A stretch of 64,000 nt of DNA from Candidatus Parcubacteria bacterium (GTDB lineage Bacteria > Patescibacteriota > Patescibacteriia > Patescibacteriales > UBA12465), in the NCBI GenBank assembly GCA_037076615.1, contig AP029158.1, positions 197,470 through 261,469 of the forward strand, read 5' to 3'. Of the stretch, positions 3,001 to 34,903 are shown piece by piece (position 1 is the stretch's first letter; each line of letters starts with the position of its first letter). The notes under the pieces were generated by a model. It had not been told where the DNA came from. It was given only the letters and a program-made list of their open reading frames with translations, and did not search any database. The translations under genes were made by a program, and so were the position numbers.

Positions 3001-5166
3001 AACGTCGGCATAGGCACCACTACTCCCGCGGCGAAACTGGCTGTTTCTGGTGGCAATGTTTTAATTAACGATGCTGTCATTACTTCCGGCACGCCTAAGG
3101 CCGCGATTACCAAAGAATATTTAGATTCTTCTTTAAGTGCCGCCGTCAGCCCAATCACCCTCTGGGGGGGAACTGCCAGTGGCAGTATTTGGAATTTGAA
3201 TGAAGGTAATGTGGGGATTGGAATAGAAAACCCAACAGCACCTCTGCATATAATAAAAACTGGTGGATCTACGAGTGATTCGAATACAGCTCTTATTTTA
3301 GATTATGAATCAGACCTAACGACTACTATTGGGGGTGGTACCGCCATAGAATTTAGAGGTAAATCTTCAGGCGGGAATGTTGCTAATTGGCAGCAAGCCA
3401 GAATTAGGACAGTTGGTTATACTGGCAATAATTCTCATGCTTTAGCTTTTGATGTACGTCCTTCAGCTGTTTATCCATTAACTGAAGCGGTAAGAATAAG
3501 TTCTAGTGGCTCCGTCGGCATCGGCACCACCGCCCCTGCTTACAAATTAGACGTCTCTGGCACTGGTAGTTTTTCTCAACCAGTTATTGTTGGCACTCCG
3601 ACTGCGACTAATCACGCCACTACTAAATCTTATGTGGATTCAACTGCAACGGCTGCCGCCGGTGGTGGCGTGGGGGCAGGTACTTCTGGGCAAACCTTAC
3701 GGCACAATGGCACCTCTTGGGTTGCTAATTCTAATTTATATAATAATGGTACGAATGTTGGGATTGGGACAACTAATCCGTCAGAGAAACTTTATGTTTC
3801 AGGAATTATTAAGGCGACGGAAGGTTTAGGTGTGGCGAATCAATTTCTTTCAGGTGGTGTATATTCTTATTCAAATGGAATTTTAGTAAATACTGATATT
3901 GCAGTTTCTGGTAATTCAATGATAGAGCTTTATATTGAGGGAAACTCTTACTCTGGCTGGGGCGCTATCGGGGGAAAAGTTACAACCTATAACTATGGAA
4001 GTGGTGGTTATTTTTATAATAGTAGTTATGTGGCCCATGGGATAACTCCTGCCGAGGTTAGAGTTTTCCATCATGATGGATTTGTAAAATTTTGGATGCC
4101 TCAGACAAGCTCTTTCCAAACATATAGATTTAGATTGGGCACGCATAGCGGTTCAAACAAAATAACTAGTATTCAAAATTTGGCCATGCCCACGGAAGGC
4201 GTGACAAATGAGGTTGTTTTAACGCCTAAAACGGTTATTAATAATTCCGTCGGTATCGGCACCGCTGCCCCCGCCTACACTTTAGATATCTCTGGCACTA
4301 GTCGTTTTACTCAACCAGTTCTTGTTGGCACACCGACAGCTGCTGGTCATGCCACTACTAAGAGTTATGTGGATTCTACTATTGGTGGCGGTTCTGGCTC
4401 CACAGTTGGTTATTGGACCATGAATGGAACCAATATCAGTAATTCAAATACGGGGAATGTGGGAATTGGGACGACGGCGCCATGGGGCAAACTTTCGGTT
4501 GTTGGCGGAGATGTAAGCTTAACAGGAAGCACCAATACAAGAATACTTGTTGGAGATTCTCTAAGTAATGATGATTATGGGCAACTTCAATGGAATACAA
4601 CAGGAAATTTTCTATCCTTAGAGTCAAGTGGAACATCGAGACCATTGGCTTTACAACAAGACGGCGGCAACGTCGGCATCGGTACCACCACCCCTGGTTA
4701 CAAACTAGACGTTTCTGGTACTGGTCGCTTTACCCAACCAGTTCTTGTTGGTACCCCAACCGCTGATGGTCATGCTACCACTAAATCTTATGTAGATTCT
4801 ACTATTGGTGGCGGTTCTGGCTCCACAGTTGGTTATTGGACAATGAATGGCACTAATATCAGTAATTCAAATACAGGGAATGTGGGGGTGGGGACGACGA
4901 ATCCGGCTACAACATTAGATATAGTTTCTGCAAACGCAAATCCATTAAGGATATATAGAAATTCGGGAAACTCAAGTGTACAAATTCAAAATAATGCCAC
5001 AAGTGGTTATGTTGGATTAAATAATTCTAATAATATTGCTTTAGGTTTTTCACTTGATCAAACAAGTGCTCCGTTTCAAGTTACATCAACTGGCAACGTC
5101 GGTATCGGCACCGCTGCCCCCGCCTACACTTTAGATATCTCTGGCACTAGTCGTTTTACTCAACCA
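1..5166 (+). repeat. Two tandem copies of a 2583-bp (861-codon) unit inside the giant CDS
   Basis: Shadow ORFs recur at an exact +2583 offset (339->2922, 1004->3587, 1333->3916, 1853->4436). By-eye comparison of the lines found one difference (c at 35 vs g at 2618). Copy 1 starts at the window edge, so the array may continue upstream. Confidence 0.9.
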
Positions 5167-8100
5167 GTTCTTGTTGGCACCCCAACTGCTGCTGATCATG
5201 CGACTACCAAATCTTATGTTGATTCCGCCGCTGGAGGCGGAATTCCCGCGGCGGCTAACGGGAGCACTTTAAGAGCTAGTGGTACCTCTTGGGTGGCGAG
5301 TACCAATCTCTATAACGATGGTAGCCAAATTGGTATTGGCACTGACAAACCCGGTTCGCTTTTGACCTTGGCTAATGACGGCTGGCTATCAGCCCGCAGT
5401 GGTGGCGATATGTCGATAGTCAATATGTTCAAAGTTAACACCAACAATCAAATTGAAGTTGGCGCGCCGCTTTTAATTGGTCCTTTGGAGTTCGCTCCCG
5501 ACAGCGGCCTAGTCAGTCTAGTGGATATGCCCGTGACTTCCGCCTCCCCAGTTGGAACTCCTCAAGGCTATGTCATGAAAATTGATGGCAATAATTTACT
5601 TTCTCTTTACTCTGAGTCTAATGGCTCGGGCGGTGCTCAGAACATGCGCCTAGGGGTAAACACCGCGACTCCGGCTTATAGCTTAGATGTTGCTGGCACT
5701 GGTCGTTTCACTCAGCCTCTTATTGTTGGCACCCCAACCGCCGCTGATCATGCGACCACCAAATCTTATGTTGACTCGGCTATCGGGGGTGGCTCTGGAT
5801 CTACGGTCGGATACTGGACTCTAAACGGCACCAATCTTTACACATCTTCAACGGATTTTAAGGTGGGTATAGGCACTGCAACACCAAATACAAAATTATC
5901 TGTATTGGGCAATGATGATTCTGGCGGGCTAGGTGTTTTGGAGTTACTAACTACCGGTGGCACTAGCCTAAGAATGGGAGGTAATACTACTTATAGTTGG
6001 ATTCAAAGCCATAGTTCTAAACCTCTATACATTAATCAGCTTGGTAATAACACTATTATCAATCCAGGTGGTGGTAATGTGGGGATTGGTACGGCGGCAC
6101 CTGGAGCAAAATTACAGCTGGGTGATAGTTCCGGCACTAATATTAAATATAGTTTAGGGGCTGCAACAACTCAGTATTATTGGGGGTCTGCTGAAAGAAT
6201 TGGTATTTCCATTGATACAAACAATGCTTGGTCTTTAGGCGCGACCACTGCCGGTGCTGGCGGTATAAGATTAGGAAATGGTGCGAACTATTCATATTTA
6301 GCTGGCGCTGGGACAAATTTATTGCTTAATCCAACAGTTGGTTCTGTTGGTATCGGTACCGGTTCACCAGCCTACAAACTTGACGTTGCCGGCACCGGCC
6401 GCTTTACCCAGCCCGTTATTGTTGGCACTCCGACTGCAGCCGATCACGCAACAACCAAATCTTATGTGGATTCAACCGCTACCGCTGCCGCTGGTGGTGG
6501 CGTGGGGGCAGGTACTTCTGGGCAAACTTTGCGGCACAACGGCACCTCTTGGGTAGCTAATTCTGTTTTATATAATAATGGGACGAATGTGGGGATTGGG
6601 ACGGCTAGTCCGAGCCAGAAGCTATCTGTAGAATCGGCAGGTGCACAATTAAGAGTTAGAGCTGTTGGCAGTGTTGGAACTTCAACAGTTGAAACTGTGC
6701 GACTTGTAATTGGAACAAACATAGACGGTTCTTTTCCGAATACTGCAGGCAATCGATTATCATTTGCTACACGCTGGACAGATTCCACTGAGTTTACTAC
6801 GGCTGCTGTTGAGTCGCATCATGATAATTCATGGGGCGGGGGATTGTCTTTCTTAACTAAGCCAGACGATGGAAATCCTTCTGGCGAAATGTTAACTAGG
6901 ATGGTTATAAATCATTTAGGCAACGTTGGCATCGGCACCACCGCCCCTGCTTATAATTTAGACGTTGCCGGCACTAGCCGCTTCACTCAACCCGTTATTG
7001 TTGGTACTCCAACAGCCACTAATCACGCCACTACTAAATCTTATGTAGATTCAACTGCTACGGCCGCTGCCGGTGGTGGCGTGGGGGTAGGTACTTCTGG
7101 GCAAACCTTACGGCACAATGGCACCTCTTGGGTGGCTAATTCTAATCTTTATAATAATGGTACGAATGTGGGGGTTGGAACGACGGTACCCGGAGCGAAT
7201 CTGCACGTTGCCGATGCTGTTGTTTCCAATAAGCACATAGATACACAAGCTTCACAAATAGTGGAAGATACAGAGGGGAGATTTCAATTTATTGCTTCCA
7301 ACTCTGGTACCGGTGGCTCAGGATTTACTTTTACAAATGCTCCTGCATCTGGAAATAACACGCATTGGAATATAAACCATGTCGGGTCTAGCATAGGTGA
7401 CGGACTTTTGTTTAGATACTCTCAGACAACGGCGACGGGGCAGGATAGTTATGTTGCTTCGGGGTTTGTGAATAGTTTGTATCTTAAAGAGAATGGCAAC
7501 GTCGGCATCGGCACCACCGCCCCTGCTTACAAATTAGACGTCTCTGGCACTGGTAGTTTTTCTCAACCAGTTATTGTTGGCACTCCGACTGCGACTAATC
7601 ACGCCACTACTAAATCTTATGTGGATTCAACTGCAACGGCTGCCGCCGGTGGTGGCGTGGGGGCAGGTACTTCTGGGCAAACCTTACGGCACAATGGCAC
7701 CTCTTGGGTTGCTAATTCTAATTTATATAATAATGGTACGAATGTTGGGATTGGGACAACTAATCCGTCAGAGAAACTTTATGTTTCAGGAATTATTAAG
7801 GCGACGGAAGGTTTAGGTGTGGCGAATCAATTTCTTTCAGGTGGTGTATATTCTTATTCAAATGGAATTTTAGTAAATACTGATATTGCAGTTTCTGGTA
7901 ATTCAATGATAGAGCTTTATATTGAGGGAAACTCTTACTCTGGCTGGGGCGCTATCGGGGGAAAAGTTACAACCTATAACTATGGAAGTGGTGGTTATTT
8001 TTATAATAGTAGTTATGTGGCCCATGGGATAACTCCTGCCGAGGTTAGAGTTTTCCATCATGATGGATTTGTAAAATTTTGGATGCCTCAGACAAGCTCT

Positions 8101-8988
8101 TTCCAAACATATAGATTTAGATTGGGCACGCATAGCGGTTCAAACAAAATAACTAGTATTCAAAATTTGGCCATGCCCACGGAAGGCGTGACAAATGAGG
8201 TTGTTTTAACGCCTAAAACGGTTATTAATAATTCCGTCGGTATCGGCACCGCTGCCCCCGCCTACACTTTAGATATCTCTGGCACTAGTCGTTTCACCCA
8301 GCCAGTTATTGTCGGCACCCCAACTCTTGCTGGACACGCTACTACTAAATCTTATGTAGACTCTGCCGTTAGTGGTGGCTCCGGCTCCACTGTCGGTTAT
8401 TGGGCTCTAAACGGCACCAGTCTTTACGCTTCTTCAACCACTTTAAACGTCGGCATTGGTACCACCAACCCCGGCACCTATAAATTAAATGTTGCCGGTT
8501 CGGCGTATATTAGCGGCGGGCTATCCTTGGGTGCATCCAACCTGACAACGACTGGTACGGTCTCTGCCAACAAAATTACCGTTGGCACGATTGACCCGCT
8601 CTATAATTTAAAGGGAGTTAACTATTCAACCTTTGCCGCTTCCATTGTCGGTGGCGTTAAAGAAGAAACTACCGGCCGGGTCATGATTGATCAGGCGGCA
8701 GACGGCGAATACCAGAAAACCCTTGATTTTAAGCGGCAAACAGTTGGCAGCGATTTGTGGGTGTGGTATAATGTAGTTGATTTTAGTAAAGATAATTTAG
8801 AGGTCTTACTCACTCCTTACGGCAAGCCAGCCAATGTTTATTATACTGTTTCTGGAGAAAAGCTTACTCTCCATTCCAATGTTCCAGTTGAAGTTTCTTA
8901 TCGCTTAATCGCCAAGCGCTTTGATTGGAAAGACTGGCCGACTAAGGCTAAAGACCAAGCTGAGACACCAAATTTTATTTTAAAATAA
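1..8988 (+). CDS. Giant repetitive tail-fibre-like surface protein, 5' end cut by the window edge (>=2995 aa)
   Basis: Frame 1 is open from nt 1 (VLVGTPTAAGHATTKSYVDS...), so the ATG at 52 is internal. There are at least 14 copies of a ~45-aa module G[NS]VGIGTxxPxxxLD[VI]xGTxxF[TS]QPV[ILV]VGTPTAxxHATTKSYVDS, separated by variable 100-250 aa inserts. The same module occurs in the S74-chaperone fibre protein at 11226-13151. Stop TAA at 8986-8988. Confidence 0.85.
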   Translation, partial: VLVGTPTAAGHATTKSYVDSTIGGGSGSTVGYWTMNGTNISNSNTGNVGIGTTTPSEKLDVVGSGNFSGTITSKNASIDGNYYALTNTFATFHHKNLTGAGQYALRQSVNGDTYLNAAANRSVWFNINNATKVIIDTNGNVGIGTTTPAAKLAVSGGNVLINDAVITSGTPKAAITKEYLDSSLSAAVSPITLWGGTASGSIWNLNEGNVGIGIENPTAPLHIIKTGGSTSDSNTALILDYESDLTTTIGGGTAIEFRGKSSGGNVANWQQARIRTVGYTGNNSHALAFDVRPSAVYPLTEAVRISSSGSVGIGTTAPAYKLDVSGTGSFSQPVIVGTPTATNHATTKSYVDSTATAAAGGGVGAGTSGQTLRHNGTSWVANSNLYNNGTNVGIGTTNPSEKLYVSGIIKATEGLGVANQFLSGGVYSYSNGILVNTDIAVSGNSMIELYIEGNSYSGWGAIGGKVTTYNYGSGGYFYNSSYVAHGITPAEVRVFHHDGFVKFWMPQTSSFQTYRFRLGTHSGSNKITSIQNLAMPTEGVTNEVVLTPKTVINNSVGIGTAAPAYTLDISGTSRFTQPVLVGTPTAAGHATTKSYVDSTIGGGSGSTVGYWTMNGTNISNSNTGNVGIGTTAPWGKLSVVGGDVSLTGSTNTRILVGDSLSNDDYGQLQWNTTGNFLSLESSGTSRPLALQQDGGNVGIGTTTPGYKLDVSGTGRFTQPVLVGTPTADGHATTKSYVDSTIGGGSGSTVGYWTMNGTNISNSNTGNVGVGTTNPATTLDIVSANANPLRIYRNSGNSSVQIQNNATSGYVGLNNSNNIALGFSLDQTSAPFQVTSTGNVGIGTAAPAYTLDISGTSRFTQPVLVGTPTAAGHATTKSYVDSTIGGGSGSTVGYWTMNGTNISNSNTGNVGIGTTTPSEKLDVVGSGNFSGTITSKNASIDGNYYALTNTFATFHHKNLTGAGQYALRQSVNGDTYLNAAANRSVWFNINNATKVIIDTNGNVGIGTTTPAAKLAVSGGNVLINDAVITSGTPKAAITKEYLDSSLSAAVSPITLWGGTASGSIWNLNEGNVGIGIENPTAPLHIIKTGGSTSDSNTALILDYESDLTTTIGGGTAIEFRGKSSGGNVANWQQARIRTVGYTGNNSHALAFDVRPSAVYPLTEAVRISSSGSVGIGTTAPAYKLDVSGTGSFSQPVIVGTPTATNHATTKSYVDSTATAAAGGGVGAGTSGQTLRHNGTSWVANSNLYNNGTNVGIGTTNPSEKLYVSGIIKATEGLGVANQFLSGGVYSYSNGILVNTDIAVSGNSMIELYIEGNSYSGWGAIGGKVTTYNYGSGGYFYNSSYVAHGITPAEVRVFHHDGFVKFWMPQTSSFQTYRFRLGTHSGSNKITSIQNLAMPTEGVTNEVVLTPKTVINNSVGIGTAAPAYTLDISGTSRFTQPVLVGTPTAAGHATTKSYVDSTIGGGSGSTVGYWTMNGTNISNSNTGNVGIGTTAPWGKLSVVGGDVSLTGSTNTRILVGDSLSNDDYGQLQWNTTGNFLSLESSGTSRPLALQQDGGNVGIGTTTPGYKLDVSGTGRFTQPVLVGTPTADGHATTKSYVDSTIGGGSGSTVGYWTMNGTNISNSNTGNVGVGTTNPATTLDIVSANANPLRIYRNSGNSSVQIQNNATSGYVGLNNSNNIALGFSLDQTSAPFQVTSTGNVGIGTAAPAYTLDISGTSRFTQPVLVGTPTAADHATTKSYVDSAAGGGIPAAANGSTLRASGTSWVASTNLYNDGSQIGIGTDKPGSLLTLANDGWLSARSGGDMSIVNMFKVNTNNQIEVGAPLLIGPLEFAPDSGLVSLVDMPVTSASPVGTPQGYVMKIDGNNLLSLYSESNGSGGAQNMRLGVNTATPAYSLDVAGTGRFTQPLIVGTPTAADHATTKSYVDSAIGGGSGSTVGYWTLNGTNLYTSSTDFKVGIGTATPNTKLSVLGNDDSGGLGVLELLTTGGTSLRMGGNTTYSWIQSHSSKPLYINQLGNNTIINPGGGNVGIGTAAPGAKLQLGDSSGTNIKYSLGAATTQYYWGSAERIGISIDTNNAWSLGATTAGAGGIRLGNGANYSYLAGAGTNLLLNPTVGSVGIGTGSPAYKLDVAGTGRFTQPVIVGTPTAADHATTKSYVDSTATAAAGGGVGAGTSGQTLRHNGTSWVANSVLYNNGTNVGIGTASPSQKLSVESAGAQLRVRAVGSVGTSTVETVRLVIGTNIDGSFPNTAGNRLSFATRWTDSTEFTTAAVESHHDNSWGGGLSFLTKPDDGNPSGEMLTRMVINHLGNVGIGTTAPAYNLDVAGTSRFTQPVIVGTPTATNHATTKSYVDSTATAAAGGGVGVGTSGQTLRHNGTSWVANSNLYNNGTNVGVGTTVPGANLHVADAVVSNKHIDTQASQIVEDTEGRFQFIASNSGTGGSGFTFTNAPASGNNTHWNINHVGSSIGDGLLFRYSQTTATGQDSYVASGFVNSLYLKENGNVGIGTTAPAYKLDVSGTGSFSQPVIVGTPTATNHATTKSYVDSTATAAAGGGVGAGTSGQTLRHNGTSWVANSNLYNNGTNVGIGTTNPSEKLYVSGIIKATEGLGVANQFLSGGVYSYSNGILVNTDIAVSGNSMIELYIEGNSYSGWGAIGGKVTTYNYGSGGYFYNSSYVAHGITPAEVRVFHHDGFVKFWMPQTSSFQTYRFRLGTHSGSNKITSIQNLAMPTEGVTNEVVLTPKTVINNSVGIGTAAPAYTLDISGTSRFTQPVIVGTPTLAGHATTKSYVDSAVSGGSGSTVGYWALNGTSLYASSTTLNVGIGTTNPGTYKLNVAGSAYISGGLSLGASNLTTTGTVSANKITVGTIDPLYNLKGVNYSTFAASIVGGVKEETTGRVMIDQAADGEYQKTLDFKRQTVGSDLWVWYNVVDFSKDNLEVLLTPYGKPANVYYTVSGEKLTLHSNVPVEVSYRLIAKRFDWKDWPTKAKDQAETPNFILK
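7501..8293 (+). repeat. Third, partial copy (~793 bp) of the repeat unit segment 931-1723 / 3514-4306
   Basis: Offsets +6570 and +3987 (ORFs 1004->7574, 1333->7903). The lines I compared were identical. Identity begins at gtcggcatcggcaccaccgcccctgcttac and ends just after ggcactagtcgttt. Confidence 0.85.
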
Positions 8989-11158: not shown

Positions 11159-11225
11159 TCTCTTCTACCCACTTTTATTGAAAAGTGGTATTATATAGGT
11201 GTGTTTAAAAAATAATTTTGACATT

Positions 11226-13151
11226 ATGAAACGGAAAAGATTTTTTAAAAAAGTCTGGCCTCTTGCGGCAGTGGCCATTTTTTTGGGTCTAATGGTTGTT
11301 TTTATAGAGCCATTATTTGCTAAAGATATTATTATTGCTCCCGGTTCCACTGATCGGGTTGGTATCGGGACAGCGGCTGCCCCCCAGTATATGCTTGATA
11401 TTGCCGGATCGGGACGTTTTACTGGCGATTTACTTATTCCTACTCCAACGGCTTCTGTTGGGATTGGGACAGCGGACCCAAGCGTTAATTTGCAGATTGG
11501 AAGTGATGCCATTAATCCAACAATTCTACTTGAAAGTACAAGTAGTGGAGATAACGCAACTGATCAATCTGCGGGAATAGAATTTGGTGAATCGCCTTCC
11601 GCTCGCGGTAGTATTTGGTATACCGGCGATGGCAATATGCATATCGGCATGAATAATAGAACAAGAGAGCATATGCGTTTTTCATACAGCGCTAATAGTG
11701 CTTGGCTCTATGGGAATTTATATTTAAATGGAGCGAGTAATAATACTTATTTCCCTGGTTCTGGTATTTGGAATTCTTCTGGCAGCGTTGGCATCGGCAC
11801 CACCGCTCCCGCCTACAAACTAGATGTTTCTGGCACTGGCCGATTTACAGGAGCTTTAATTGTTCCAACCCCCTCCGCTTCTAGCCATGCGGCTACTAAG
11901 GGTTATGTTGATTCAGTTGCCGGCACCGGCGGCATTTCCGGATCAGGAACAACTAATTACATTCCTAAATGGTCTAGTGCGTCCGGTCTAACAAATTCTC
12001 GAATTAGTGATACTGGAACTGGAAATGTAGTTGTTAGTGCCGTCTTACAAGCCACTTCTTTCTCAGGTAATGCTACTTCTGCTACTAACGCAGATTATGC
12101 TACCAACGCAGGTTATGCGGCTTCTGCTGGTACTGCCGGATCTCTTTCAAGTACTTCCTTATGCGGTGTCGGCTCTTACGCTCGTGGTATAACGACTTCA
12201 GGCGCAGCTAGTGGTTGCACCGCTGTCCCTACTGGCGGCCATGGTGATGGCACTAATTGTTCTACTGGCTATTTTGCCACCGGCGTTGATGCTTCCGGTA
12301 ATGCTCAAGGTTGTGCTAATTCCATCGCTAATTCTACTAACGCAGATTATGCTACCAACGCAGGTTATGCTACCAACGCAGGTTATGCAGCTTCTGCTGG
12401 TACTGCTGGAGCCCTTTCAAGCACCTCTTTGTGCAGTTCTGGCTACTATGCTCGTGGTATAACTACTTCGGGCACAGCCAGCGGCTGCACCGCCGTCCCT
12501 ACTGGTGGCCATGGCAATGGTACTAATTGTTCTGCCGGTTATTATGCTCGTGGTGTCGATGCTTCCGGTAATGCTGAAGATTGCACCGCGGTCCCTAGTG
12601 GTGGCCATGGCGATGGTACTAATTGTACTGCTGGTACTTATCCTCTGGGTGTTGACGCTTCCGGTAATGTTCAAAGTTGTACTGACACTGTTAATTATGC
12701 TAATTATGCGATCAGTTTAGCTGCTAACGGATCTAACTGCTCTGCCGGTTCTTTTCCCCTCGGTGTCGATGCTAATGGAGCCGCTGAGAGTTGTACCTCT
12801 TTAACTAACGGTGGTTTTAGTCCTGCCTTCGGCACAGTAACAGCAACTTCATATCTATATTCATCCGACGCTAAATTAAAAACCAACATCAAAACGATTA
12901 AAAAACCCTTAGAAAAAATCACCGCTCTTAGGGGCGTCACCTTTAAGTGGAAAGATTCAAAAGAACCGAGCATGGGGTTAATCGCCCAAGAAGTGGAAAA
13001 AGTTTTCCCCGAATTAGTGGAAACCAGTGGTCAATATAAAGCGGTTGAATATGGTAATTTAGTCGCCCCGTTAATTGAAGCCGTAAAGGCGCAACAGGTA
13101 CAAATTGAAGCGCTGGAGGCCCGAATTGCCGACTTGGAATCCAACCGCTAA
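11226..13151 (+). CDS. Tail-fibre-like protein with Cys-rich repeats and a C-terminal peptidase-S74 intramolecular chaperone domain
   Basis: Start taken at MKRKRFFKKVW followed by a TM/signal segment. It carries the GSVGIGTTAPAYKLDVSGTGRFTGALIVPTPSASSHAATKGYVDS module. There are about 8 repeats of C-x2-G-x-[YF]-x2-G-[IV]-x2-SG-x-A-x2-C. The C-terminus SSDAKLKTNIKTIKKPLEKITALRGVTFKWKD...GLIAQEVEKVFPELV...VEYGNLVAPLIEAVKAQQ matches the endosialidase/tail-fibre chaperone (Pfam Peptidase_S74) signature. Confidence 0.85.
   Translation: MKRKRFFKKVWPLAAVAIFLGLMVVFIEPLFAKDIIIAPGSTDRVGIGTAAAPQYMLDIAGSGRFTGDLLIPTPTASVGIGTADPSVNLQIGSDAINPTILLESTSSGDNATDQSAGIEFGESPSARGSIWYTGDGNMHIGMNNRTREHMRFSYSANSAWLYGNLYLNGASNNTYFPGSGIWNSSGSVGIGTTAPAYKLDVSGTGRFTGALIVPTPSASSHAATKGYVDSVAGTGGISGSGTTNYIPKWSSASGLTNSRISDTGTGNVVVSAVLQATSFSGNATSATNADYATNAGYAASAGTAGSLSSTSLCGVGSYARGITTSGAASGCTAVPTGGHGDGTNCSTGYFATGVDASGNAQGCANSIANSTNADYATNAGYATNAGYAASAGTAGALSSTSLCSSGYYARGITTSGTASGCTAVPTGGHGNGTNCSAGYYARGVDASGNAEDCTAVPSGGHGDGTNCTAGTYPLGVDASGNVQSCTDTVNYANYAISLAANGSNCSAGSFPLGVDANGAAESCTSLTNGGFSPAFGTVTATSYLYSSDAKLKTNIKTIKKPLEKITALRGVTFKWKDSKEPSMGLIAQEVEKVFPELVETSGQYKAVEYGNLVAPLIEAVKAQQVQIEALEARIADLESNR
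12084..12590 (+). repeat. Internal ~255-bp diverged tandem duplication encoding the NADYATNAGYA...Cys-repeat block
   Basis: actaacgcagattatgctaccaacgcaggttatgc recurs at ~12084 and ~12339. The following ~250 bp are clearly homologous but diverged. Confidence 0.7.
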
Positions 13152-13707: not shown

Positions 13708-15855
<2,148 letters not shown>

Positions 15856-15875: not shown

Positions 15876-17162
15876 ATGACTCCCAAAATTAAAACCGTCA
15901 GTGCCCGAGAAATTCTAGATAGTGGCGGCTGGCCCACGGTTGAAGTAACAATTACTTTAAATACCGGTGAGCGGGCCAGAGCGAGTGCACCCACGAGCTC
16001 TTTACACAGCCATTTTGAGGCGGCCGAGAAGAGAGATGGCGATAGCCAGCGTTATTTTGGTCGCGGCGTTCTTTTGGCCGTCCAGGTGGTTAATGAGCAA
16101 ATCGCTCCGGCTTTAGCTGGACGGTCGCCCTTAGAGCAGGAAAAAATTGATCAAATTTTAATTGATTTAGATGGCACCTCACAAAAAGAAAAAATCGGCG
16201 CGCCCGCTCTGTTAGCAGTTTCACTGGCGGCAGCGAAAGTGGCGGCCTTAACTAAAAAACAAGAGCTTTACGAATATTTACACGAAATTTATTTTAAGGG
16301 CAGTGACATAAAATTGCCGACGCCGCTACTAACAATGTTTAACGGTGGTGGTTTTGCTGATACCAATTTAGATTTTCAGGAATACTTATTAACCTTTTCT
16401 CCTAGCGCTCCTCGCTTTCAGAAAAGCGGGCAGCCCGTAGCTGAGATGGTAAGAGCGGGTGCCGAAACTTATCACCGGCTCGGACAAATTTTAGATGCGG
16501 CCGGTTATGATGTTGATACCGGTTCACAAGGCGGCTACGCCCCGGATATGGATTCCAGTATCCAAGCTTTAGAGTTGATTAGCGCCGCCGCTTTAGCCGC
16601 TGGCTATGAAAATGAATTCCGGCTGGGAGTTGATATTGGTTCCGGCTCTCTTTTTGACGAAGCCGAGCAAAAATATATTTTCTCCTTAGGAGCTGATTAT
16701 TTAAGCAGTGCCAATTTAATTGGCCTCTACCACAGTTGGCTGAGCCGCTTTCCGATTGTTTATTTAGAAGACCCGGCCGCCGCCACCGATCTTGATGCTT
16801 GGCGTCAGGTGACCCAGGAGTTAGGTGGGAAAACTTTGTTAGCTGGTAATGATTTTTTTGCCACTAACACTAAGCGTTTACGGACCGCTCTCAAAGATCA
16901 TTTAGGAAATGCACTCGTGATCGTCCCTGCTCAAGCCGGAACCCTAACAGAAACAATGGAGTGTTTGCAGTTGGCTAAACGACATAATTATCGGATTATT
17001 TTTAGTCAACGCCGCGGCGAAACTAACGATGATTCTTTAGTGGATTTAGCAGTTGCCAGTGGTGCGGATTATTTAAAGGCTGGCGCTCCCACTCGTGGTG
17101 AACGTGTTAGTAAATGGAATCGCCTACTTCTTATTGAATCTAATTTAAGGACGAAATCCTAA
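15876..17162 (+). CDS. Enolase-family protein with substituted catalytic residues (probable non-canonical or inactive enolase)
   Basis: Full-length collinear similarity to enolase (REILDSGGWPTVEV..., YLEDP, GTLTET, GETND, KAGAPTRGERVSKWNRLL). Catalytic positions differ; see findings. Confidence 0.85.
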   Translation: MTPKIKTVSAREILDSGGWPTVEVTITLNTGERARASAPTSSLHSHFEAAEKRDGDSQRYFGRGVLLAVQVVNEQIAPALAGRSPLEQEKIDQILIDLDGTSQKEKIGAPALLAVSLAAAKVAALTKKQELYEYLHEIYFKGSDIKLPTPLLTMFNGGGFADTNLDFQEYLLTFSPSAPRFQKSGQPVAEMVRAGAETYHRLGQILDAAGYDVDTGSQGGYAPDMDSSIQALELISAAALAAGYENEFRLGVDIGSGSLFDEAEQKYIFSLGADYLSSANLIGLYHSWLSRFPIVYLEDPAAATDLDAWRQVTQELGGKTLLAGNDFFATNTKRLRTALKDHLGNALVIVPAQAGTLTETMECLQLAKRHNYRIIFSQRRGETNDDSLVDLAVASGADYLKAGAPTRGERVSKWNRLLLIESNLRTKS

Positions 17163-17169
17163 AATTTTT

Positions 17170-18036
17170 ATGCCTGATTTAAATTCACAAATAGCACCCG
17201 CCTCGGAGTCGAAAAAAAAGGAGACTAGCGGACCAGTAGTTTTATTGTTGCTGGATTCTTGGGGGGTCGCGCCTTTAAGTGAAGGGAACGCTTTTAACGG
17301 TCTAAATTTAAAAAATCTTAATAGGTTTTTAGAGAATTATCCGGTCGCTGTTTTATCGGCATCGGGTGAGCCGGGGCAGCGCTACCAGATTTTAGGAGCC
17401 GGGGGTCAATTAACAAAAATAATTTCTGAAGCTGGTCTAAAGCAAAGACGTTTAAGCGAAAGCGAAGCTGCGCCTTTTTTAGAAGGTTATTTTATCAATG
17501 GCCGTGCTGAATTATTGGCGGGCGAAAGTCGAGAGGTGATTTCTTCTCCCGGCGGCGACCGCCAAGAAAACCTGGAAGAGGCTAGTGCGGCCTTGGTAAA
17601 AAAATTAATTAGTCTTATTAAAAAAGGGGAAGAAGATTTTATCGTTCTTAGTTTAAGTTATTTAGATTTAGTGGCTCAGACGGGAGACTGGGAAAAAACT
17701 AGGAGTGCCTTAAAGACTTATGATCTGTGGGTGGGTAAAATTGGTGACGCCCTTCGTAAATACCGCGGCACCTTAATCCTTAGTTCAACTTACGGCCGCG
17801 TCGAGACTCTCCGGGATTCTTTTTCGGAGGTCGCGCAAACGGATATTACTGATAAGCCAATCCCTTTTTTAATTGTGGGGCAAAATTATACCGGCCAGAG
17901 TTTAGGCACGGATTTTTTTTCCGAAGATTTAAGCTTGCTGCCTTTGGCTGGTGATCTAAGCGTGGTCGCTCCGACAATTTTAGATATCTTAAAAATAAAA
18001 ATTCCGAAAAACTTCCCGAGTAAAAGTTTACTTTAA
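17170..18036 (+). CDS. Truncated, degenerate cofactor-independent phosphoglycerate mutase (iPGM)-like protein
   Basis: N-terminus PVVLLLLDSWGV...GNAF...YPVAVLSASGEPGQ and C-terminus LILSSTYGRVE...LSVVAPTILDILKIKIPKNFPSKSLL align to the GpmI ends. It is 288 aa against ~510 aa for GpmI. The transferase domain and the phosphoserine segment are missing. Confidence 0.65.
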   Translation: MPDLNSQIAPASESKKKETSGPVVLLLLDSWGVAPLSEGNAFNGLNLKNLNRFLENYPVAVLSASGEPGQRYQILGAGGQLTKIISEAGLKQRRLSESEAAPFLEGYFINGRAELLAGESREVISSPGGDRQENLEEASAALVKKLISLIKKGEEDFIVLSLSYLDLVAQTGDWEKTRSALKTYDLWVGKIGDALRKYRGTLILSSTYGRVETLRDSFSEVAQTDITDKPIPFLIVGQNYTGQSLGTDFFSEDLSLLPLAGDLSVVAPTILDILKIKIPKNFPSKSLL

Positions 18037-18080: not shown

Positions 18081-18524
18081 TTAGAACCAGAAATAACCGG
18101 CCAGAGCGACTAAAACACCAATAATGGCTCCCATTAAAACTTGCAAGGGGGTGTGTCCGATGCGCTCTAGTTGTTTAGGGTAATGACTTTCTAAAATATC
18201 ATCATCATCTAAGTCGCCAACAATTTTATTGAGCGCTTGGCCATGCGCACCTAGATAATTACGTAAACCAATGGCATCGGTAATCACAATGGCGGCAAAA
18301 ATTAAGGCTAAGGCAAACTCCACGGAAGCAATACCCAGCTTTAAATAAACAATCGCTAATAGGGAAGTGACTGTGGCTGTATGTCCGGAGGGCATATCCG
18401 AATAGGCAAAAATATCACGCCAAGAAAGATGGCCGCGTCGGCGCGTCTTCAGAAAAAATTTTATTCCCTGGGCGATAGTAAAAGCAATAACTGGATAAAT
18501 GAAGTAAGGCAGAACGTAATTCAT
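18081..18524 (-). CDS. Divergent PAP2 family (YuiD/DUF212-like) membrane protein
   Basis: Collinear with B. subtilis YuiD-type proteins: DMPSGHTATVTSL, ITDAIGLRNYLGAHGQALNKIV, GHTPLQVLMGAIIG. Confidence 0.85.
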   Translation of the reverse strand: MNYVLPYFIYPVIAFTIAQGIKFFLKTRRRGHLSWRDIFAYSDMPSGHTATVTSLLAIVYLKLGIASVEFALALIFAAIVITDAIGLRNYLGAHGQALNKIVGDLDDDDILESHYPKQLERIGHTPLQVLMGAIIGVLVALAGYFWF

Positions 18525-18534
18525 AATTAAAAAA

Positions 18535-20547
18535 TTAAATATCTAGGTTGGCCACTTTTTTGGCATTAGTTTGGATGAAGTTTTTTCGCGGCGCGACATT
18601 GTCGCCCATCAGCATATCAAAGATTTGATCCGCCTTCGCCGCATCTTCAATTTTTACCTGTTTAGCAATTCTTTTTTCCGGGTCCATGGTCGTTTCCCAA
18701 AGCTGCTCGGCATTCATTTCTCCTAAACCTTTGTAGCGTTGAATATGAATCCGGGTGTTTTTCTTTTTGGTCGCTTTTCCCTCTTCCTCCGCTACGGCTT
18801 CCTCAGCTTCTTCTTCGCTGGGATCTTCGGTGGCTAAAGTTTCGCCGCCCAATTCGGCAACAATTTTATTTTTTTCCTCATCGCTGTAGGCGTAATGAGC
18901 CGCTGTTCCTTTTTTAATTTGATATAGTGGTGGTTGGGCAATATAAATATGGCCACCCTCAATTAAATAAGGGAAGTGGCGGAAAAATAGCGTTAGCAAG
19001 AGGGTGCGGATGTGAGCGCCATCAACATCAGCATCGGTCATGATAATAATGCGGTGATAGCGGAGTTTATTAATATCAAACTGATCATCAATGTTGGTTC
19101 CCATCGCAATTACCAAATTTTTAATTTCGGCATTAGCTAACATTTTATCCATTCGGGCACGTTCTACGTTGAGAATTTTTCCTCGTAAAGGTAAGATTGC
19201 TTGGAAGCGACGATTGCGGCCTTGTTTGGCACTGCCGCCAGCGGAGTCACCCTCAACGATATAGAGTTCGCAATCTTCCGCTTTTCGCGAAGAGCAGTCG
19301 GCTAATTTTCCCGGTAAGGTCATACCTTCGAGGGCACCTTTTCTCAGAATGGTAGCGCGCGCGCTCCGAGCGGCCAGACGAGCCTGAGAGGAGAGAATGC
19401 ATTTATTGATAATGGCTTCACCTTCTTTAGGATTTTCTTCTAAAAACATTAGGAGAGCTTCGCCAAAAATCTGTTCTACATACCCCTTCATTTCCGCGTT
19501 GCCTAGTTTACCTTTAGTTTGACCTTCAAATTGCGGGTCGGTTAACTTAACACTAATAATGGCGGTTAAGCCTTCACGAACATCTTCACCGGTGAGATTT
19601 TCTTGCTTATCTTTTAAGAGATTTTTGGAACGACCATAATTATTTAAAGTTCTGGTGAGCGCCGTTTTAAAACCAACTAAATGGGTCCCACCTTCCGGGT
19701 TATGAATGTTATTGGCAAAAGCAATAGTGGTTTCGTTAAACTCATCATTATATTGTAAAGCCACTTCCACCTTCCCATCATTAATTTCTTTTTCTACATA
19801 AAAAACGGTATCGTGTTTAACCGATTTATCACGATGCAGAGATTTAATATAAGATTTAATGCCGCCTTCAAAATGAAAGCGATATTTTTTCGGACGGTGG
19901 TCCGGACGCTCGTCAATAATATTAATAGTGACTCCTTTGGTGAGATAAGTTTGTTGACGTAAGCGGTCTAAAATTTTACCCCAATTAAATTCGGTTTCTG
20001 TAAAGATTGTTGGATCCGGTTTAAATGAAATAGTGGTACCGCTACCGTTATCTTTAGCGACCGCTTTAGCTGGCCCTTTTGGTTTGCCAATATTATATTC
20101 TTGTACCCAAAGTTGGCCATCGCGGCGGACTTCAGCACGCAAGTAGGAGCTTAAAGCATTAACGACGGAAACGCCGACGCCATGTAAGCCGCCGGAGACT
20201 TTGTAACCGCCGCCGCCGAATTTGCCGCCGGCGTGAAGCTTGGTGAGAACTGTTTCTAAAGCTGATATTCCTGTGGCTTTCATTTTTTCTACCGGGATAC
20301 CGCGACCATCATCAGCCACCGAAACCAAGCCGTCTTTAGTCAGGGTGACGGTAATCTGTTCGGCAAAGCCGGCCATCGCTTCATCAATACAGTTATCAAC
20401 TACTTCCCAAATTAAATGATGTAAACCGGTAGCGGAAGTGGAGCCGATATACATGCCCGGTCTTTTACGAACCGGGTCCAAACCCTCTAAAACAGTGATT
20501 GCGTCTGCGCCGTAATCCTGAGTTTTTTTGTTATCATTAGTGCTCAT
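18535..20547 (-). CDS. gyrB: DNA gyrase subunit B
   Basis: [96 protein letters not shown]. Start taken at MSTNDN (20547). Confidence 0.95.
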   Translation of the reverse strand: [670 protein letters not shown]

Positions 20548-20852
20548 AAAAACATAAAAACGTCCAGTCAAAGGACATTTTTGACTTAATTTTCGAATCT
20601 TAATCTAGGCTCATTATAACACGAAAAAATTGTCTTAGCAAGTAGAAAAAGCCCCGTTTTTATTGCTTAAAAATTAATAAATCCAGATTTTTTCTTTAAT
20701 TTATGATATTATATTACCAGTGGGGTTTTAAGCTTGGTTAGCGCCATTATCAGTCCCCCTCTTACCCTGGGATTTAGAAAGTGTTAAACTAAAAAACTCA
20801 GACTGTTTTGGGGGGATCTTATCTAATGTGGCATCTCTCGTAACCTAATTTT

Positions 20853-21584
20853 ATGAAAAAATTAATTTTAGCAAATTGGAAAATGCAGCTCTCTTTTAAA
20901 GAGAGTGAAAAGTTAGCTAAAGATTACCGGGTAAAAATTAAAAACTCTGTTGCCGAACTTGGCGTGTTGCCGGATTTTAGCGCCTTAGAAACAGTTTGCC
21001 GCCATTTGCCGTCTAAAGTTTTTAAATTGGGAGCGCAGGATGTCGCTCCTTATATAAAAGGTGCTTATACCGGCGAGGTTAGTGCTGCTTCACTTAAACA
21101 GCTAGGGGCCAAATATGTCTTAGTCGGTCACAGTGAGCGTCGCCAAGAGTTTAAAGAAAATTCTCCTCTACTACGTTTAAAAGTTCAAGCTGCTCTTGAG
21201 GCCGGTTTAGTTCCGATTTTATGTATTGGTGAAAACGCCACTCAGAAAAAAAATGGCCAAACAGTCGCAGTTTTAAGACGACAATTAGAGGAAGTATTAT
21301 TTGGTTTAGTGATAGAAAAAGATAATGCTTTAGTGGTTGCCTATGAGCCTTTATGGGCAATCGGCAGTGGTCAACCCCTAGAGGCTTCTCAGGCGGAAGC
21401 AATTCAGGTAATGATTAAGGGGGTTTTAGCTAATTTAATCGGTCGCTTTCCCCGCGTTATTTATGGCGGTAGCGTCAACGCCAAAAATGCTGCGGACTTT
21501 TTAGAATGGCCTAATATAGACGGGCTTTTAGTTGGCGGCGCTAGTCTAAGAGCTGATGAATTTAAAAAAATTATTGGTGCTTAA
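20853..21584 (+). CDS. tpiA: Triose-phosphate isomerase (catalytic residues intact)
   Basis: ANWKM (Asn/Lys), VGHSERR (His), YEPLWAIGSG (Glu), YGGSV. Confidence 0.93.
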   Translation: MKKLILANWKMQLSFKESEKLAKDYRVKIKNSVAELGVLPDFSALETVCRHLPSKVFKLGAQDVAPYIKGAYTGEVSAASLKQLGAKYVLVGHSERRQEFKENSPLLRLKVQAALEAGLVPILCIGENATQKKNGQTVAVLRRQLEEVLFGLVIEKDNALVVAYEPLWAIGSGQPLEASQAEAIQVMIKGVLANLIGRFPRVIYGGSVNAKNAADFLEWPNIDGLLVGGASLRADEFKKIIGA

Positions 21585-28765: not shown

Positions 28766-28915
28766 CGTTGATTAAATCGTGTAAAGTGACCCAGAAGCCG
28801 AGCTTTTTGAGGTTCATTCCCAAAGAGGTAAAATACCTCGCGGGGAATAGAAAAAGGGAAGCTTTTAATAAGGCGGCTGGTTGCTTAAGACCAGCTGTTT
28901 TATTTAGCTAAAAGT

Positions 28916-31913
28916 ATGAGTCAAATAATAAAAATTTTTATTGACAAGGTAAATGGTCAGTTTGAAACTGGTCATGCCCGTGAGCACTCTTATCGCCCGG
29001 CTTTAGAAGAACTATTTAAAGAGATTACTGGCCTGAAAGTTATTAATGAGCCTAAAAGAAGTGAGTATGGTGCACCAGACTTTGTTTTTTTAAATAAAAA
29101 CATTGTAACTGCCCATGCTGAAGCTAAGGATTTACAGGTGTCGTTAAAAGAAATTGAAAAAAGTGATCAAATGATTAGGTATTATGGATACTCAAATTTG
29201 ATTTTAACTAATTGCTTGGAATTTAGATTTTATAAAAGCGGGCAAGCTTATGGCAATCCGATTATTATTGCTGAATTAAAAAATAATGCAATTTCGGTTG
29301 ATGAAACAAAATTTCAACTTCTTGAAGATACGATAAAAGATTTTATTAAGGACTCTAAAGAGCCTATTAGATCTGGTATTCATTTAGCTAGAGTTATGGC
29401 CGGTAAAGCCCGTCGTATTAGGGATAGCATTAAAAATTATTTGACCCTGGGAGATGATAGTACAAATCAGGAATTATTGGCTGTTTATGAAGTTATAAAA
29501 AAATTATTATTAGCCGATTTAGATAGAGAAAAGTTTGCTGACATGTATGCCCAGACTTTAGTGTATGGTCTTTTTGTTGCGCGTTATTACGACAAAACTT
29601 CAGAAACTTTTTCTAGACATGAGGCTCGTGATTTAGTTCCTGCCTCTAACCCTTTTCTTCGCCATTTTTTTGACCATATCGCCGGATCATCTTTTGACCC
29701 AAGAATTGAAATGATTGTTGATGAGTTATGTGAAGAATTTGCTCACGCTGATGTTCAAGCGATTGTTCATAATTATTATAAAGTTGATAAAGATGATAGC
29801 CGTGATCCTATCATTCATTTTTATGAAGACTTTTTGCAGGAGTATGACTCCAATGAACGAAAAAAGATGGGAGTTTTTTATACACCACTGCCAGTCGTTC
29901 GTTTTATCGTCCGTTCTATTGATGATATTTTAAAAAAAGAATTTGGTTTATTACGAGGTTTGGCAGATACTTCTAAAATTGAAGTTAAGCGAGAAAGTCA
30001 GGGTAAAAAATATAAAGATCAAATACATAAAGTACAAGTGCTTGACCCTGCCACTGGAACGGGTACATTCTTAAATGAAGTTATTTTACAAGTTAAGAAG
30101 TCTTTTTCTGGTCAAGAGGGAAGATGGAACAATTATGTTAATGAAGATTTATTACCACGGCTCCACGGCTTTGAATTAATGATGGCTTCTTATACTATTG
30201 CTCACTTAAAACTTTCTACTACAATTAAAGAATCTGGAGCAGAAATAAAAAATCAACGCCTCGGTGTTTATTTAACTAATTCTTTGGAAAAAGGATTGGT
30301 AGAGGAGAGAAATCTCTTTTCTGGTTTAGGGTTTGGCAAGGCTATTACCGATGAATCTATAGAAGCTAGTAGAATAAAAAATGATTTACCGATTATGGTC
30401 GTGCTTGGCAACCCGCCATATTCTGGGGAGTCAAATAATTCACATTATATTGCAAATGATGTTTATAAAATTGAGCCTAATGGAGGTAAGCTGCAAGAAC
30501 GCAATTCCAAATGGTTAAATGACGATTATGTAAAATTCATTCATTTTGCAGAAAGTATGATTGAAAAATCTGGCGAAGGAATTGTTGCCATGATTACCGC
30601 TCATGGTTATCTTGATAACCCAACTTTTAGAGGGATGCGATTTCATTTAACCAAAACATTTGATCAAATATATATTATTGATTTGCATGGGAATTCAAAA
30701 AAGAAAGAGGTCTCTCCAGATGGCGGTAAGGACGAGAATGTATTTAATATTATGCAGGGAGTGTCTATTATTTTGGCGATAAAAAAGAAAGGAAATAAAA
30801 ATCGTGTTGCTGATGTTTTTTATTCCGAGTTATGGGGGAAAAGAATTAAAAAGTTTGAGTCTCTTTCTGGCGAAATAAAGTATCAAAAAATTTCTCTAGA
30901 TCAAAAATATTATTTTTTTGTACCAAAAAATATTGAAGGGAAAATTGAATATGAAAAGGGATTTTCTATCGGAGATTTGTTTGTTCAAAATAGTGTTGGC
31001 GTTGTTACCGCAAAAGACTCTGTGTTTATTGCGGACAGCGAAAAAAGATTAAAGGATCAAATAAATAAGTATTTTGAAGATAACAAAATTAATGAAATAT
31101 TTAACGAGGATAAAATAAAAAAAATTTCTTATAGACCATTGGATAACAAAATAATATATTGGGATACAAAATTACTTGAACGTTCGAGAGAAAGGTTGAT
31201 GAAACATTTTTTTAAGGAAAATGTTGGTTTAGTTTTAGTTAGACAATTCAAATCTGGGGGAAAATTATTGTCATGTCTTAATCTCTAAATTAATAGTTGA
31301 GTCTACTTTTATATCAAATAAGACAAGTGAGATTGGATATCTATTTCCTGTCTACTTGTATAATGATATTGGCATAAAAATTTCTAACCTAAAAAAAGAA
31401 ATTGTTGATGATATAGAAAAAATAGTTGGCAAAACAACTCCAGAGAATATTTTAGATTATATTTATGCTGTTTTATATTCACCAACTTATCGTGAAAAAT
31501 ATAAAGAATTTTTAAAAATTGATTTTCCGAGAGCACCTTATCCAGAAAGTAAAGAGCAATTTGAATCATTAGTTTCTTTTGGTAAAGAGCTTCGTGGACT
31601 TCATCTTTTAGAATCATCAAAGTTAAATAGTTTTATTACCACTTACCCTGAGGTTGGCGACGATATTATTGAAAAGAAATTTCCAGTATATAAAGATGAA
31701 AAAGTTTATATTAATGACATCCAGTATTTTGGAAACGTGCCACTAATTGCTTGGAATTTTTATATTGGCGGTTATCAGCCGGCTCAAAAATGGTTAAAAG
31801 ATAGGCGTGAGAGAAAATTATTCAATGAAGATATTGAACACTATCAAAAAATGATTACTGTACTTATGGAGACTGATAGAATAATGAAGGAGATTGATAA
31901 ATTTTTTAAGTAA
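28916..31913 (+). pseudogene. Type IIG (MmeI/type-ISP-C-terminal-like) fused endonuclease / N6-adenine methyltransferase, split by a frameshift at a G5 tract
   Basis: N-terminal PD...EAK nuclease-like motif (GAPDFVF at 29075, AHAEAKD at 29120). MTase motif I VLDPATGTGTFL and motif IV NPPY at 30410-30421. The downstream ORF carries YAVLYSPTYREKYKEFLKIDFPRAPYP. The +1 frame is open from 31239 and reads ...ENYCHVLISKLIVESTFISNKTSEIGYLFPVYLYNDIG straight into ORF 31356-31913. The shift maps to tctGGGGGaaaa at 31256-31260. Confidence 0.8.
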
Positions 31914-33258: not shown

Positions 33259-33450
33259 AATCCTTAAATTTACGTATTACAAGCACATTAATGACGCAAC
33301 TCACGAAGGAAGTCCAGGTCCCAGCTGTTGGTAACTATACTTTACTCTTGACCTTATTTATATTATTATATATAATATTATTAACGTTAAGGGTTAATAA
33401 AAATATTATGAAATCCCCTCGTTTTACAAATTTAATATCTTATGTAAAAA

Positions 33451-33786: not shown

Positions 33787-33812
33787 TATATAAATTTTTT
33801 AATTTTAAATAT

Positions 33813-34901: not shown

Positions 34902-34903
34902 TT

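Follow-up and report, generated by a model that had tools for sequence, protein, structure and literature searches.

The stretch analysed here, hereafter the window, comprises 64,000 nucleotides (64 kb) of contig AP029158.1 from a Candidatus Parcubacteria bacterium and contains, on its forward strand, an enolase gene (eno) followed closely by an open reading frame (ORF) for a 288-aa protein that resembles cofactor-independent phosphoglycerate mutase (iPGM, the product of gpmI) but lacks its transferase domain and most of its active site. This short protein is a pseudoenzyme: its catalytic residues are lost, its fold is kept and it evolves under purifying selection. It would descend from the second gene (copy 2) of a tandem iPGM pair found in Candidate Phyla Radiation (CPR) lineages, the hallmark of copy 2 being an insertion that ends in Asp-Leu-Ser (DLS). 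The elements on which the analysis bears are listed here, with iPGM residues numbered as in the G. stearothermophilus structure 1EJJ.

15876..17162, forward strand: enolase homologue, 428 aa, with S39L, H159F, E211Q, D320N, K345V and H373Q (yeast numbering)
17163..17169, forward strand: 7-nt spacer between the eno stop codon, which ends at 17162, and the ATG of the short gene at 17170
17170..18036, forward strand: short iPGM-like protein of the DLS type, 288 aa, predicted to be catalytically dead and orthologous to tandem iPGM copy 2
17242..17265, forward strand: LLLLDSWG, the first beta-strand with D29 (equivalent to metal ligand D12; kept in 53 of 53 loci)
17365..17421, forward strand: GEPGQRYQILGAGGQLTKI, the scar of two deletions, with the 11-aa Ser62 loop gone between P68 and Y72 and the transferase domain reduced to G79-Q80
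17458..17478, forward strand: ESEAAPF, corresponding to the iPGM motif ETEKYPH, with the phosphate-binding K336 replaced by A100
17662..17679, forward strand: LDLVAQ, corresponding to PDMVGH, with D403 kept as D166 and H407 replaced by Q170
17782..17805, forward strand: SSTYGRVE, corresponding to TADHGNAE, with D444 replaced by T207 and H445 by Y208
17836..17868, forward strand: QTDITDKPIPF, corresponding to QTAHTTNPVPV, with H462 replaced by I226
17878..17940, forward strand: the copy-2-specific insertion of ~14 aa, at the end of which stands the near-invariant D253-L254-S255

The 288-aa product matches the Pfam family PF01676 (Metalloenzyme; E=7e-23), and no match to PF06415 (iPGM_N) was found in the Pfam scan. 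Against the NCBIfam iPGM equivalog TIGR01307 it scores 101.8 bits in two stretches, below the cut-off of 330.65, and against NF003897 it reaches 85.3 bits versus a cut-off of 862. The alignment with 1EJJ pairs residues 21-68 with 4-51 and residues 81-287 with 317-508, jumping in the reference from 51 to 317; the transferase domain (1EJJ residues ~74-316, ~240 aa) is reduced to the two residues G79-Q80, and an additional deletion of 11 aa removed the Ser62 loop. The AlphaFold2 (AF2) model (pLDDT 81, pTM 0.84) retrieved iPGM phosphatase domains as its best Foldseek matches (E~1e-14) and phosphopentomutase at E~1e-8, and the apgM profile TIGR00306 aligned with E=0.077 and 12 bits. In the databases the short forms are labelled 'bisphosphoglycerate-independent phosphoglycerate mutase' (JGI) or hypothetical (NCBI).

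Only two of the six ligands of the binuclear Mn site (D12, D403, H407, D444, H445 and H462) persist in the window protein, where these positions read D, D, Q, T, Y and I. D12 and D403 are kept as D29 and D166, Ser62 is deleted, and the remaining changes are H66 to Y72, K336 to A100, H407 to Q170, D444 to T207, H445 to Y208 and H462 to I226. A scan of species-representative genomes, each viewed over +-10 kb, provided 52 loci for comparison, those with names belonging to Falkowbacteria, Patescibacteria and Parcubacteria. The Ser62 loop is missing in 53 of 53 short-form loci; H407, D444 and H462 are each found in none of the 53 short proteins and H445 in 11, D12 is present in all 53, D403 in 44 and Arg or Lys at position 336 in 45, the window's own clade being without R336. 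In the 117 unique short sequences, the 8 residues upstream of the conserved Tyr72 include no conserved Ser, Thr or Cys. Judged by sequence, all 53 short forms are catalytically dead, and the losses show a protein that should be incapable of the phospho-Ser mechanism of iPGM or of any binuclear-metal phosphotransfer, with no mutase activity predicted between 3-phosphoglycerate (3PG) and 2-phosphoglycerate (2PG).

These results largely uphold an earlier note on this DNA, which had described a 288-aa product aligning to both ends of iPGM without the transferase domain, placed 7 nt downstream of a degenerate enolase and deprived of its nucleophile and most metal ligands. The conversions of PDMVGH to LDLVAQ and of TADHGN to SSTYGR that it gave are exact, and its reduction of GQMGNSEVGH to GQRYQILG is approximately right, the Ser62 loop being deleted and H66 replaced by Tyr. 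The profile and structure comparisons that it proposed favour iPGM, and the possibility that it raised of another alkaline-phosphatase branch with an intact site of its own is contradicted by the 12-bit apgM score and by the lack of a nucleophile in 117 sequences.

The family to which the short protein belongs is large. Thirteen close short homologues (95-34% identity) were found in the protein database, and the best 150 matches of an exhaustive profile search included about 70 clusters of short forms (50% identity); in total, the family counts no fewer than 117 unique sequences and spans 52 species-level genomes, in which the ORFs are intact and encode 282-312 aa. Across the clade the short protein shares 30-40% identity versus 75-80% for gyrB, and ~30 positions are at least 85% conserved in the 117 short sequences. 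Its dN/dS ranges from 0.04 to 0.23 (Nei-Gojobori, ten pairs); by the same method the enolases, degenerate ones included, give 0.035-0.09 (0.06-0.08 for that of the window), and both sets of values are comparable with those of ligA, tpiA and pgk. The purifying selection on the short protein and on the dead enolases marks them as pseudoenzymes rather than pseudogenes. The strength of this constraint on dead enolases and on a half-enzyme deprived of its ligands, in genomes of <1 Mb that retain little unless it serves a purpose, points to a non-catalytic function. As a separate observation, a comparison of the window with the 95%-identical locus L002 (15876-18036 versus 6062-8222) gave a dS of 0.28 for eno and 0.15 for the short gene, far below the 0.57-0.85 of the flanking ligA, gyrB, DUF212 and tpiA; the low values may stem from recombination in the recent past or from constraint at the RNA level.

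The enolase of the window scores 401 bits against the eno equivalog TIGR01060 and so passes the cut-off of 300, although six residues are lost among the catalytic K345 and E211, the metal ligands D246, E295 and D320, and S39, H159 and H373. All 11 catalytic and metal-binding residues are kept in 29 of the 52 enolases beside a short form, and 23 are degenerate, with losses that differ between lineages: six residues in the window clade, D246N with D320S in L001 and L007, K345E in L022, L024 and L027, E211L in L038, L041 and L048, and H159Y with H373A or H373Q in L008, L010 and L014. On an enolase tree from which the catalytic columns were omitted, site loss has about ten separate origins. Where copy 1 is intact, the adjacent enolase is intact too, in five cases of five (Fisher p=0.07 on a small sample), and the C-terminal enolase fragments of L055 and L057 are intact as well. 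Further up the pathway, ten catalytic or binding residues of phosphoglycerate kinase (PGK) are invariant in 46 of 46 loci (alignment to T. maritima PGK), and the catalytic motifs of triosephosphate isomerase (TIM) are kept. With PGK and TIM intact and enolase often degenerate, catalytic constraint appears to stop after PGK, being relaxed, not abolished, at enolase. Concerning PGK itself, the equivalent of yeast R65, which binds the phosphate of 3PG, is Glu or Asp in 36 of 46 loci (for example, L001 5550-6728) and Arg in the outgroup L051; the other residues checked are invariant except R38 (Lys in 33 of 46) and N25 (Asp in 2 of 46), the D372 column having been set aside as a probable misalignment.

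Downstream of the short gene, the window carries three further genes that serve for comparison between loci.

18081..18524, reverse strand: DUF212 (divergent PAP2) gene, a synteny anchor marking the slot of iPGM copy 2
18535..20571, reverse strand: gyrB, the second synteny anchor
20853..21584, forward strand: tpiA, with intact catalytic Lys, His and Glu motifs, an internal control for upstream glycolytic constraint

About 45 loci show the order pgk-eno-short gene-(x)-DUF212(-)-gyrB(-)...tpiA-TPR, and that of the window is eno-short gene-DUF212(-)-gyrB(-). The gap between eno and the short gene is mostly -38 to +10 nt in the 52 loci, measured to the start of the longest ORF, so that negative values are upper bounds on the overlap; the spacing is tight in 50 of the 52, and this tight, often overlapping junction suggests co-translation with enolase. 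In the subclade of the window (window, L002-L004), ligA (window 13756-15855, forward strand) takes the place of pgk.

The provenance of the short gene is indicated by loci with two iPGM genes. L062, L063 and L064 have the order pgk-eno-iPGM copy 1-iPGM copy 2, with both copies full-length and canonical in the phosphatase and transferase domains; behind copy 2, L062 and L063 have DUF212(-), and L062 also has gyrB(-). Tandem pairs after eno lie at L062 5421-8596, L063 5442-8596, L064 5424-8575, L058 1001-4160 and L059 4287-6912; a copy 1 in tandem with a DLS-type copy 2 recurs in several CPR lineages, both being apparently catalytically competent in three. Copy 2 is distinguished by its ~14-aa insertion, G[KRQ]xxGxxD...DLS, with a fixed spacing of 39 residues from the H462 position to the APT motif, and this insertion is missing from copy 1, from L051 and from ordinary iPGMs. 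In the window protein it corresponds to residues 237-257 (GQNYTGQSLGTDFFSEDLSLL). When DLS-type proteins are defined by a ~14-aa insertion ending in D-[LMPI]-[ST] and by 38-40 residues from the H462 position to the APT motif, the spacing is found in 94 of 94 measurable short forms and the motif in 90 of 94; D253 and S255 are ~95% conserved in the short family. The DLS loop is the most conserved family-specific element and occurs in live, dead, long and short copy-2 proteins. Copy-2 proteins whose site is fully canonical carry it too, so that it predates, and also outlives, the loss of the active site.

Copy 1 and copy 2 form separate clades in a curated tree of 27 sequences, with the dead short forms nested within copy 2, and a larger tree (196 sequences, midpoint root) is ladder-like and not cleanly bipartite; both were built by neighbour-joining (NJ) from saturated, divergent data. 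The flank of the window is matched by those of L062, L063 and L057. Because it combines the DLS insertion, the shared genomic slot and the nesting in the tree, the short protein of the window is, as far as sequence comparison can tell, the orthologue of copy 2. A positional orthology with gpmI, first suggested by the outgroup L051 (pgk-eno-full-length gpmI), was overturned by the tandem-pair loci and the DLS insertion. Copy 1 is missing from all 52 short-form loci.

Other iPGM-like proteins depart from the canonical site in different ways. Ten full-length DLS-type members (P0083, P0084, P0102, P0114, P0125, P0127, P0135, P0151, P0155 and P0156) form a subgroup with D12 replaced by E, K336 by G, S or A and D444 by S or T, the histidines being kept, a pattern that suggests changed specificity, not decay. 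Cys takes the place of Ser62, with all metal ligands present, in the full-length P0055 and P0097, in the short P0056, P0068, P0091 and P0112 and in L059 6001-6912, and these proteins possibly represent a Cys-nucleophile phosphatase branch.

Several loci have the appearance of intermediates. L058 contains an intact copy 1 followed by a full-length but dead copy 2 (P0109); in L055 and L057 the gene directly after that for enolase is a dead copy 2 of full length (P0124 and P0138), and DUF212(-) comes next in L057. In L059 an intact copy 1 precedes a short copy 2 whose metal site is complete and whose nucleophile position is occupied by Cys, and the short forms of L054 and L060, with intact sites, lie in unrelated surroundings (envelope sugar genes; efp/tsaE). 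The replacement of H66 by Tyr is common to the dead full-length and the short dead forms, and the dead full-length copy 2 is also devoid of the substrate arginines of the transferase domain. Duplication, death of copy 2, loss of copy 1 and deletion of the transferase domain is the most economical order that these forms suggest. Thus, gpmI would have been duplicated downstream of eno, with copy 2 gaining the ~14-aa insertion ending in D-L-S; copy 2 would then have lost its nucleophile, its metal ligands and the transferase-domain arginines while copy 1 was still working, and copy 1 would subsequently have disappeared from the locus. The transferase domain of copy 2, by then useless, would have been deleted, leaving an alkaline-phosphatase-like core of 280-310 aa, and, with no PGM at the locus, enolase would have repeatedly lost catalytic residues, the window lineage being the most advanced. 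Extant genomes hold nearly every step of the formation of this pseudoenzyme, a series that is rarely so complete, and both the identity and the evolutionary history of the short protein are well supported.

The evolutionary part of the earlier note fared less well. It had proposed to look for the degenerate pair in relatives, where the short forms are dead in 53 of 53 and enolase is degenerate in 23 of 52. Its proposal that two consecutive steps degenerated together is at odds with the 29 intact enolases and with the different residues lost, in about ten lineages, by the other 23. The short gene is better described as a copy 2 orthologue, given the DLS insertion and the copy 2 of L058 that is dead beside an intact copy 1, than as a remnant of the glycolytic gpmI, and a remnant in the sense of decay is incompatible with at least 117 unique sequences from 52 species-level genomes under purifying selection.

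As to function, we consider it probable that the short protein is a pseudoenzyme orthologous to copy 2, retained by purifying selection, which acts by binding and not by catalysis. In the most likely arrangement, it would be co-translated with enolase, and beyond the window subclade with PGK as well, and serve as a subunit or regulator; the invariant DLS loop would provide a contact surface, and the vestigial acidic/basic pocket (D12, D403 and usually R336, the latter absent from the window clade) a residual ligand site. Because copy 2 is dead beside a live copy 1 in L058, the non-catalytic role should predate the loss of the pathway step, and the survival of the DLS loop after the loss of H462 makes a role in metal affinity unlikely.

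Several points weigh against this interpretation. At ~50% overall identity, 29 of 52 enolases are fully intact, which argues that catalysis is still selected in many lineages, and these enolases would need a PGM encoded elsewhere, an unexpected activity, or another source or sink of 2PG or phosphoenolpyruvate (PEP). That the PGM step is missing genome-wide is what we infer from +-10 kb per genome. The mirror-tree comparison of evolutionary rates, a weak test, gave a partial r of 0.30 between enolase and the short protein, below the values for unrelated neighbours. The L025-type short forms are split from the main cluster in the 196-sequence NJ tree, and the transferase domain may have been lost more than once. 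Finally, the binding role itself is a best guess.

Among the alternatives, the one that survives best, doubtful though we regard it, is that another PGM operates elsewhere in the genome (a relocated copy 1, a cofactor-dependent enzyme (dPGM) of the histidine-phosphatase family, or apgM), such that glycolysis is intact, the short protein has nothing to do with it and the adjacency to eno is historical. The predominance of intact enolases, the lack of rate covariation between the short protein and enolase and the short intact relatives in unrelated contexts (envelope sugar genes; efp/tsaE) would all fit, as would the +-10 kb to which the view of each genome extends. However, the ~10 separate losses of the enolase site all occurred where copy 1 is missing at the locus, and the tight spacing of eno and the short gene in 50 of 52 loci is not what a purely historical adjacency would lead one to expect. 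In addition, none of the best 120 copy-1-type proteins, out of at least 8,000 matches, lies on a contig that agrees in length with a short-form contig, the latter comprising among others a closed genome of 977 kb and contigs of 678-809 kb, although this is weak evidence.

A more radical possibility, which we advance tentatively and hold to be unlikely, is that in a large Patescibacteria clade (NCBI 'Falkowbacteria'; including UBA1359, GTDB class ABY1) lower glycolysis has turned structural or regulatory, the short protein and an often dead enolase taking part in a non-metabolic complex (for example, RNA-degradosome-like or host-contact) and the route from 3PG through 2PG to PEP being truly lost. 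If so, the substrate-level gain of ATP would end at PGK.

It seems improbable that the short protein is still an enzyme, a phosphatase or a mutase feeding 2PG to the intact enolases from a site remodelled around D29 (D12), D166 (D403), R/K336 and the inserted D253/S255. Such a site would explain why D12, D403 and a basic residue at 336 stand out (53, 44 and 45 of 53, versus 0-20% for the other ligands) and why D253/S255 are ~95% conserved; 29 of 52 enolases would be there to use the product, and there are short relatives of the copy-2 type whose sites are complete, with Ser or Cys as nucleophile, and which may be genuine phosphatases. Yet with the transferase domain gone, glycerate has nothing to bind or re-orient it, R336 is lost in the clade of the window, and the DLS motif, being older than the site loss, did not arise as a replacement nucleophile. 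We also know of no enzyme of the alkaline-phosphatase superfamily that functions with two of six metal ligands and no nucleophile. A new nucleophile within the DLS loop had been considered as a candidate, and was weakened by the same precedence of DLS over site loss.

A decaying relic, that is, a pseudogene in progress with no function and with an ORF whose intact state is due to chance or is recent, is very improbable and largely refuted: every catalytic feature is lost and the short gene evolves faster than its neighbours (30-40% identity versus 75-80% for gyrB), but the intact 282-312-aa ORFs of 52 species-level genomes, the about 70 clusters among the best 150 matches, a dN/dS of 0.04-0.23, the ~30 positions conserved at 85% or more and the confident AF2 fold all speak for constraint. 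Least credible of all is a split enzyme, in which a separately encoded transferase domain would reassemble with the phosphatase half: the excision is clean and the transferase domain of iPGM is an insertion within the phosphatase domain, but tblastn with two transferase domains against the 53 loci (+-10 kb) and the 64-kb window recovered only the full-length L051 gene, and the phosphatase half itself has neither nucleophile nor a full set of metal ligands, so that this explanation is refuted for the sequence covered.

Elsewhere in the 64-kb window, a scan for pgk, gapdh, pyk and dPGM found none of them. An ADP-forming acetyl-CoA synthetase (CoA_binding + Succ_CoA_lig + ATP-grasp_5; 39860-41950, forward strand) adjoins adenylate kinase (41997-42569, reverse strand); it represents a substrate-level ATP step, for which acetyl-CoA must come from elsewhere than the apparently blocked lower glycolysis. 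A giant ORF of 2978 aa (52-8988, forward strand) precedes a 650-aa protein (11199-13151, forward strand) with repeated 'GxxCSxGxYxxGVDASGNAxxC' units and a C-terminal Peptidase_S74 domain (endosialidase/tail-fibre intramolecular chaperone), by its appearance a surface fibre of the phage-tail-fibre type encoded by a CPR genome. A low-GC island (~28900-35500; 0.31-0.37 versus ~0.43), probably a mobile or defence island, encodes a Type ISP/MmeI-like restriction-methylase (28916-31288), a serine recombinase (33258 to 31906 on the reverse strand, that is, 31906-33258) and an HTH protein with an IrrE/M78 peptidase (33813-34901).

Searches of the literature turned up no account of an iPGM paralogue that is truncated or inactive, nor of iPGM genes paired in tandem in CPR; new here is a pseudoenzyme family that appears to derive from iPGM through gene duplication, loss of the active site and deletion of a domain. 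Unexplained absences of PGM in Parcubacteria clades have been flagged (Jaffe et al. 2020). For Patescibacterium danicum, of the type genus Patescibacterium, glycolysis to pyruvate was inferred with K15633 (gpmI) as the only PGM call, and the tree of the same study places genus UBA1359 in the family of Patescibacterium (PMC11809585); this genus has a dead short form of 306 aa (L045). Since a dead enolase passes the equivalog cut-off and the short form is labelled as a PGM, presence/absence reconstructions can overcall a complete lower glycolysis, and annotation pipelines that report complete glycolysis in Patescibacteria with the short form may be wrong.

Of the known systems, iPGM itself (1EJJ/1O98; TIGR01307; EC 5.4.2.12) shares with the short protein a homologous alkaline-phosphatase-like core (PF01676), the motifs DGWG, GNA, (A)ETE, LD(L/M)V, GxxE, NPVP and APTIL and the operon slot after eno, whereas the short protein has no PF06415 domain and no Ser62 loop, keeps two of six metal ligands, has Ala for K336 and carries the ~14-aa DLS insertion. 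The copy-2 iPGMs of the CPR pairs (P0205, P0223 and P0218; L062-L064) are closer, sharing the slot after eno and copy 1, the insertion, the 39-residue spacing and the clade; unlike the window protein, they measure 524-531 aa, are canonical at nine phosphatase-site positions and in the transferase residues, and have copy 1 beside them. The periplasmic domain of YejM/PbgA (6VC7, 5I5D) is likewise an alkaline-phosphatase fold without canonical phosphotransfer chemistry, and structures of this type are among the Foldseek matches of the short-protein model (TM ~0.58), but it belongs to a distant LtaS/sulfatase-like branch, is membrane-anchored and has a different biology, so that the likeness is at fold level only.

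For the dead enolases, a precedent is the scaffold role of enolase in RNA degradosomes, those of RNase E in E. coli and of the RNase Y network in B. subtilis, a structural task for a glycolytic enzyme (PMC8152036). A comparable role would explain dead enolases under strong purifying selection, although degradosome enolases, unlike that of the window, are catalytically active. To our knowledge, iPGM is not an established degradosome component. For the DLS loop, the closest parallel is cyanobacterial iPGAM, in which a lineage-specific loop, swapped by the authors for the G. stearothermophilus TKKGI, affects Mn affinity and regulation by PirC (PMC12077085). As in the DLS proteins, the insertion follows directly after the NPVPxxx strand behind H462, at the TKKGI site; unlike the short protein, the cyanobacterial enzyme is active and full-length with a C-terminal extension, and the loop sequences are unrelated. 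We know of no PirC-like partner in CPR. The cyanobacterial loop nevertheless makes the site of the DLS insertion a documented place for regulatory or protein-contact insertions.

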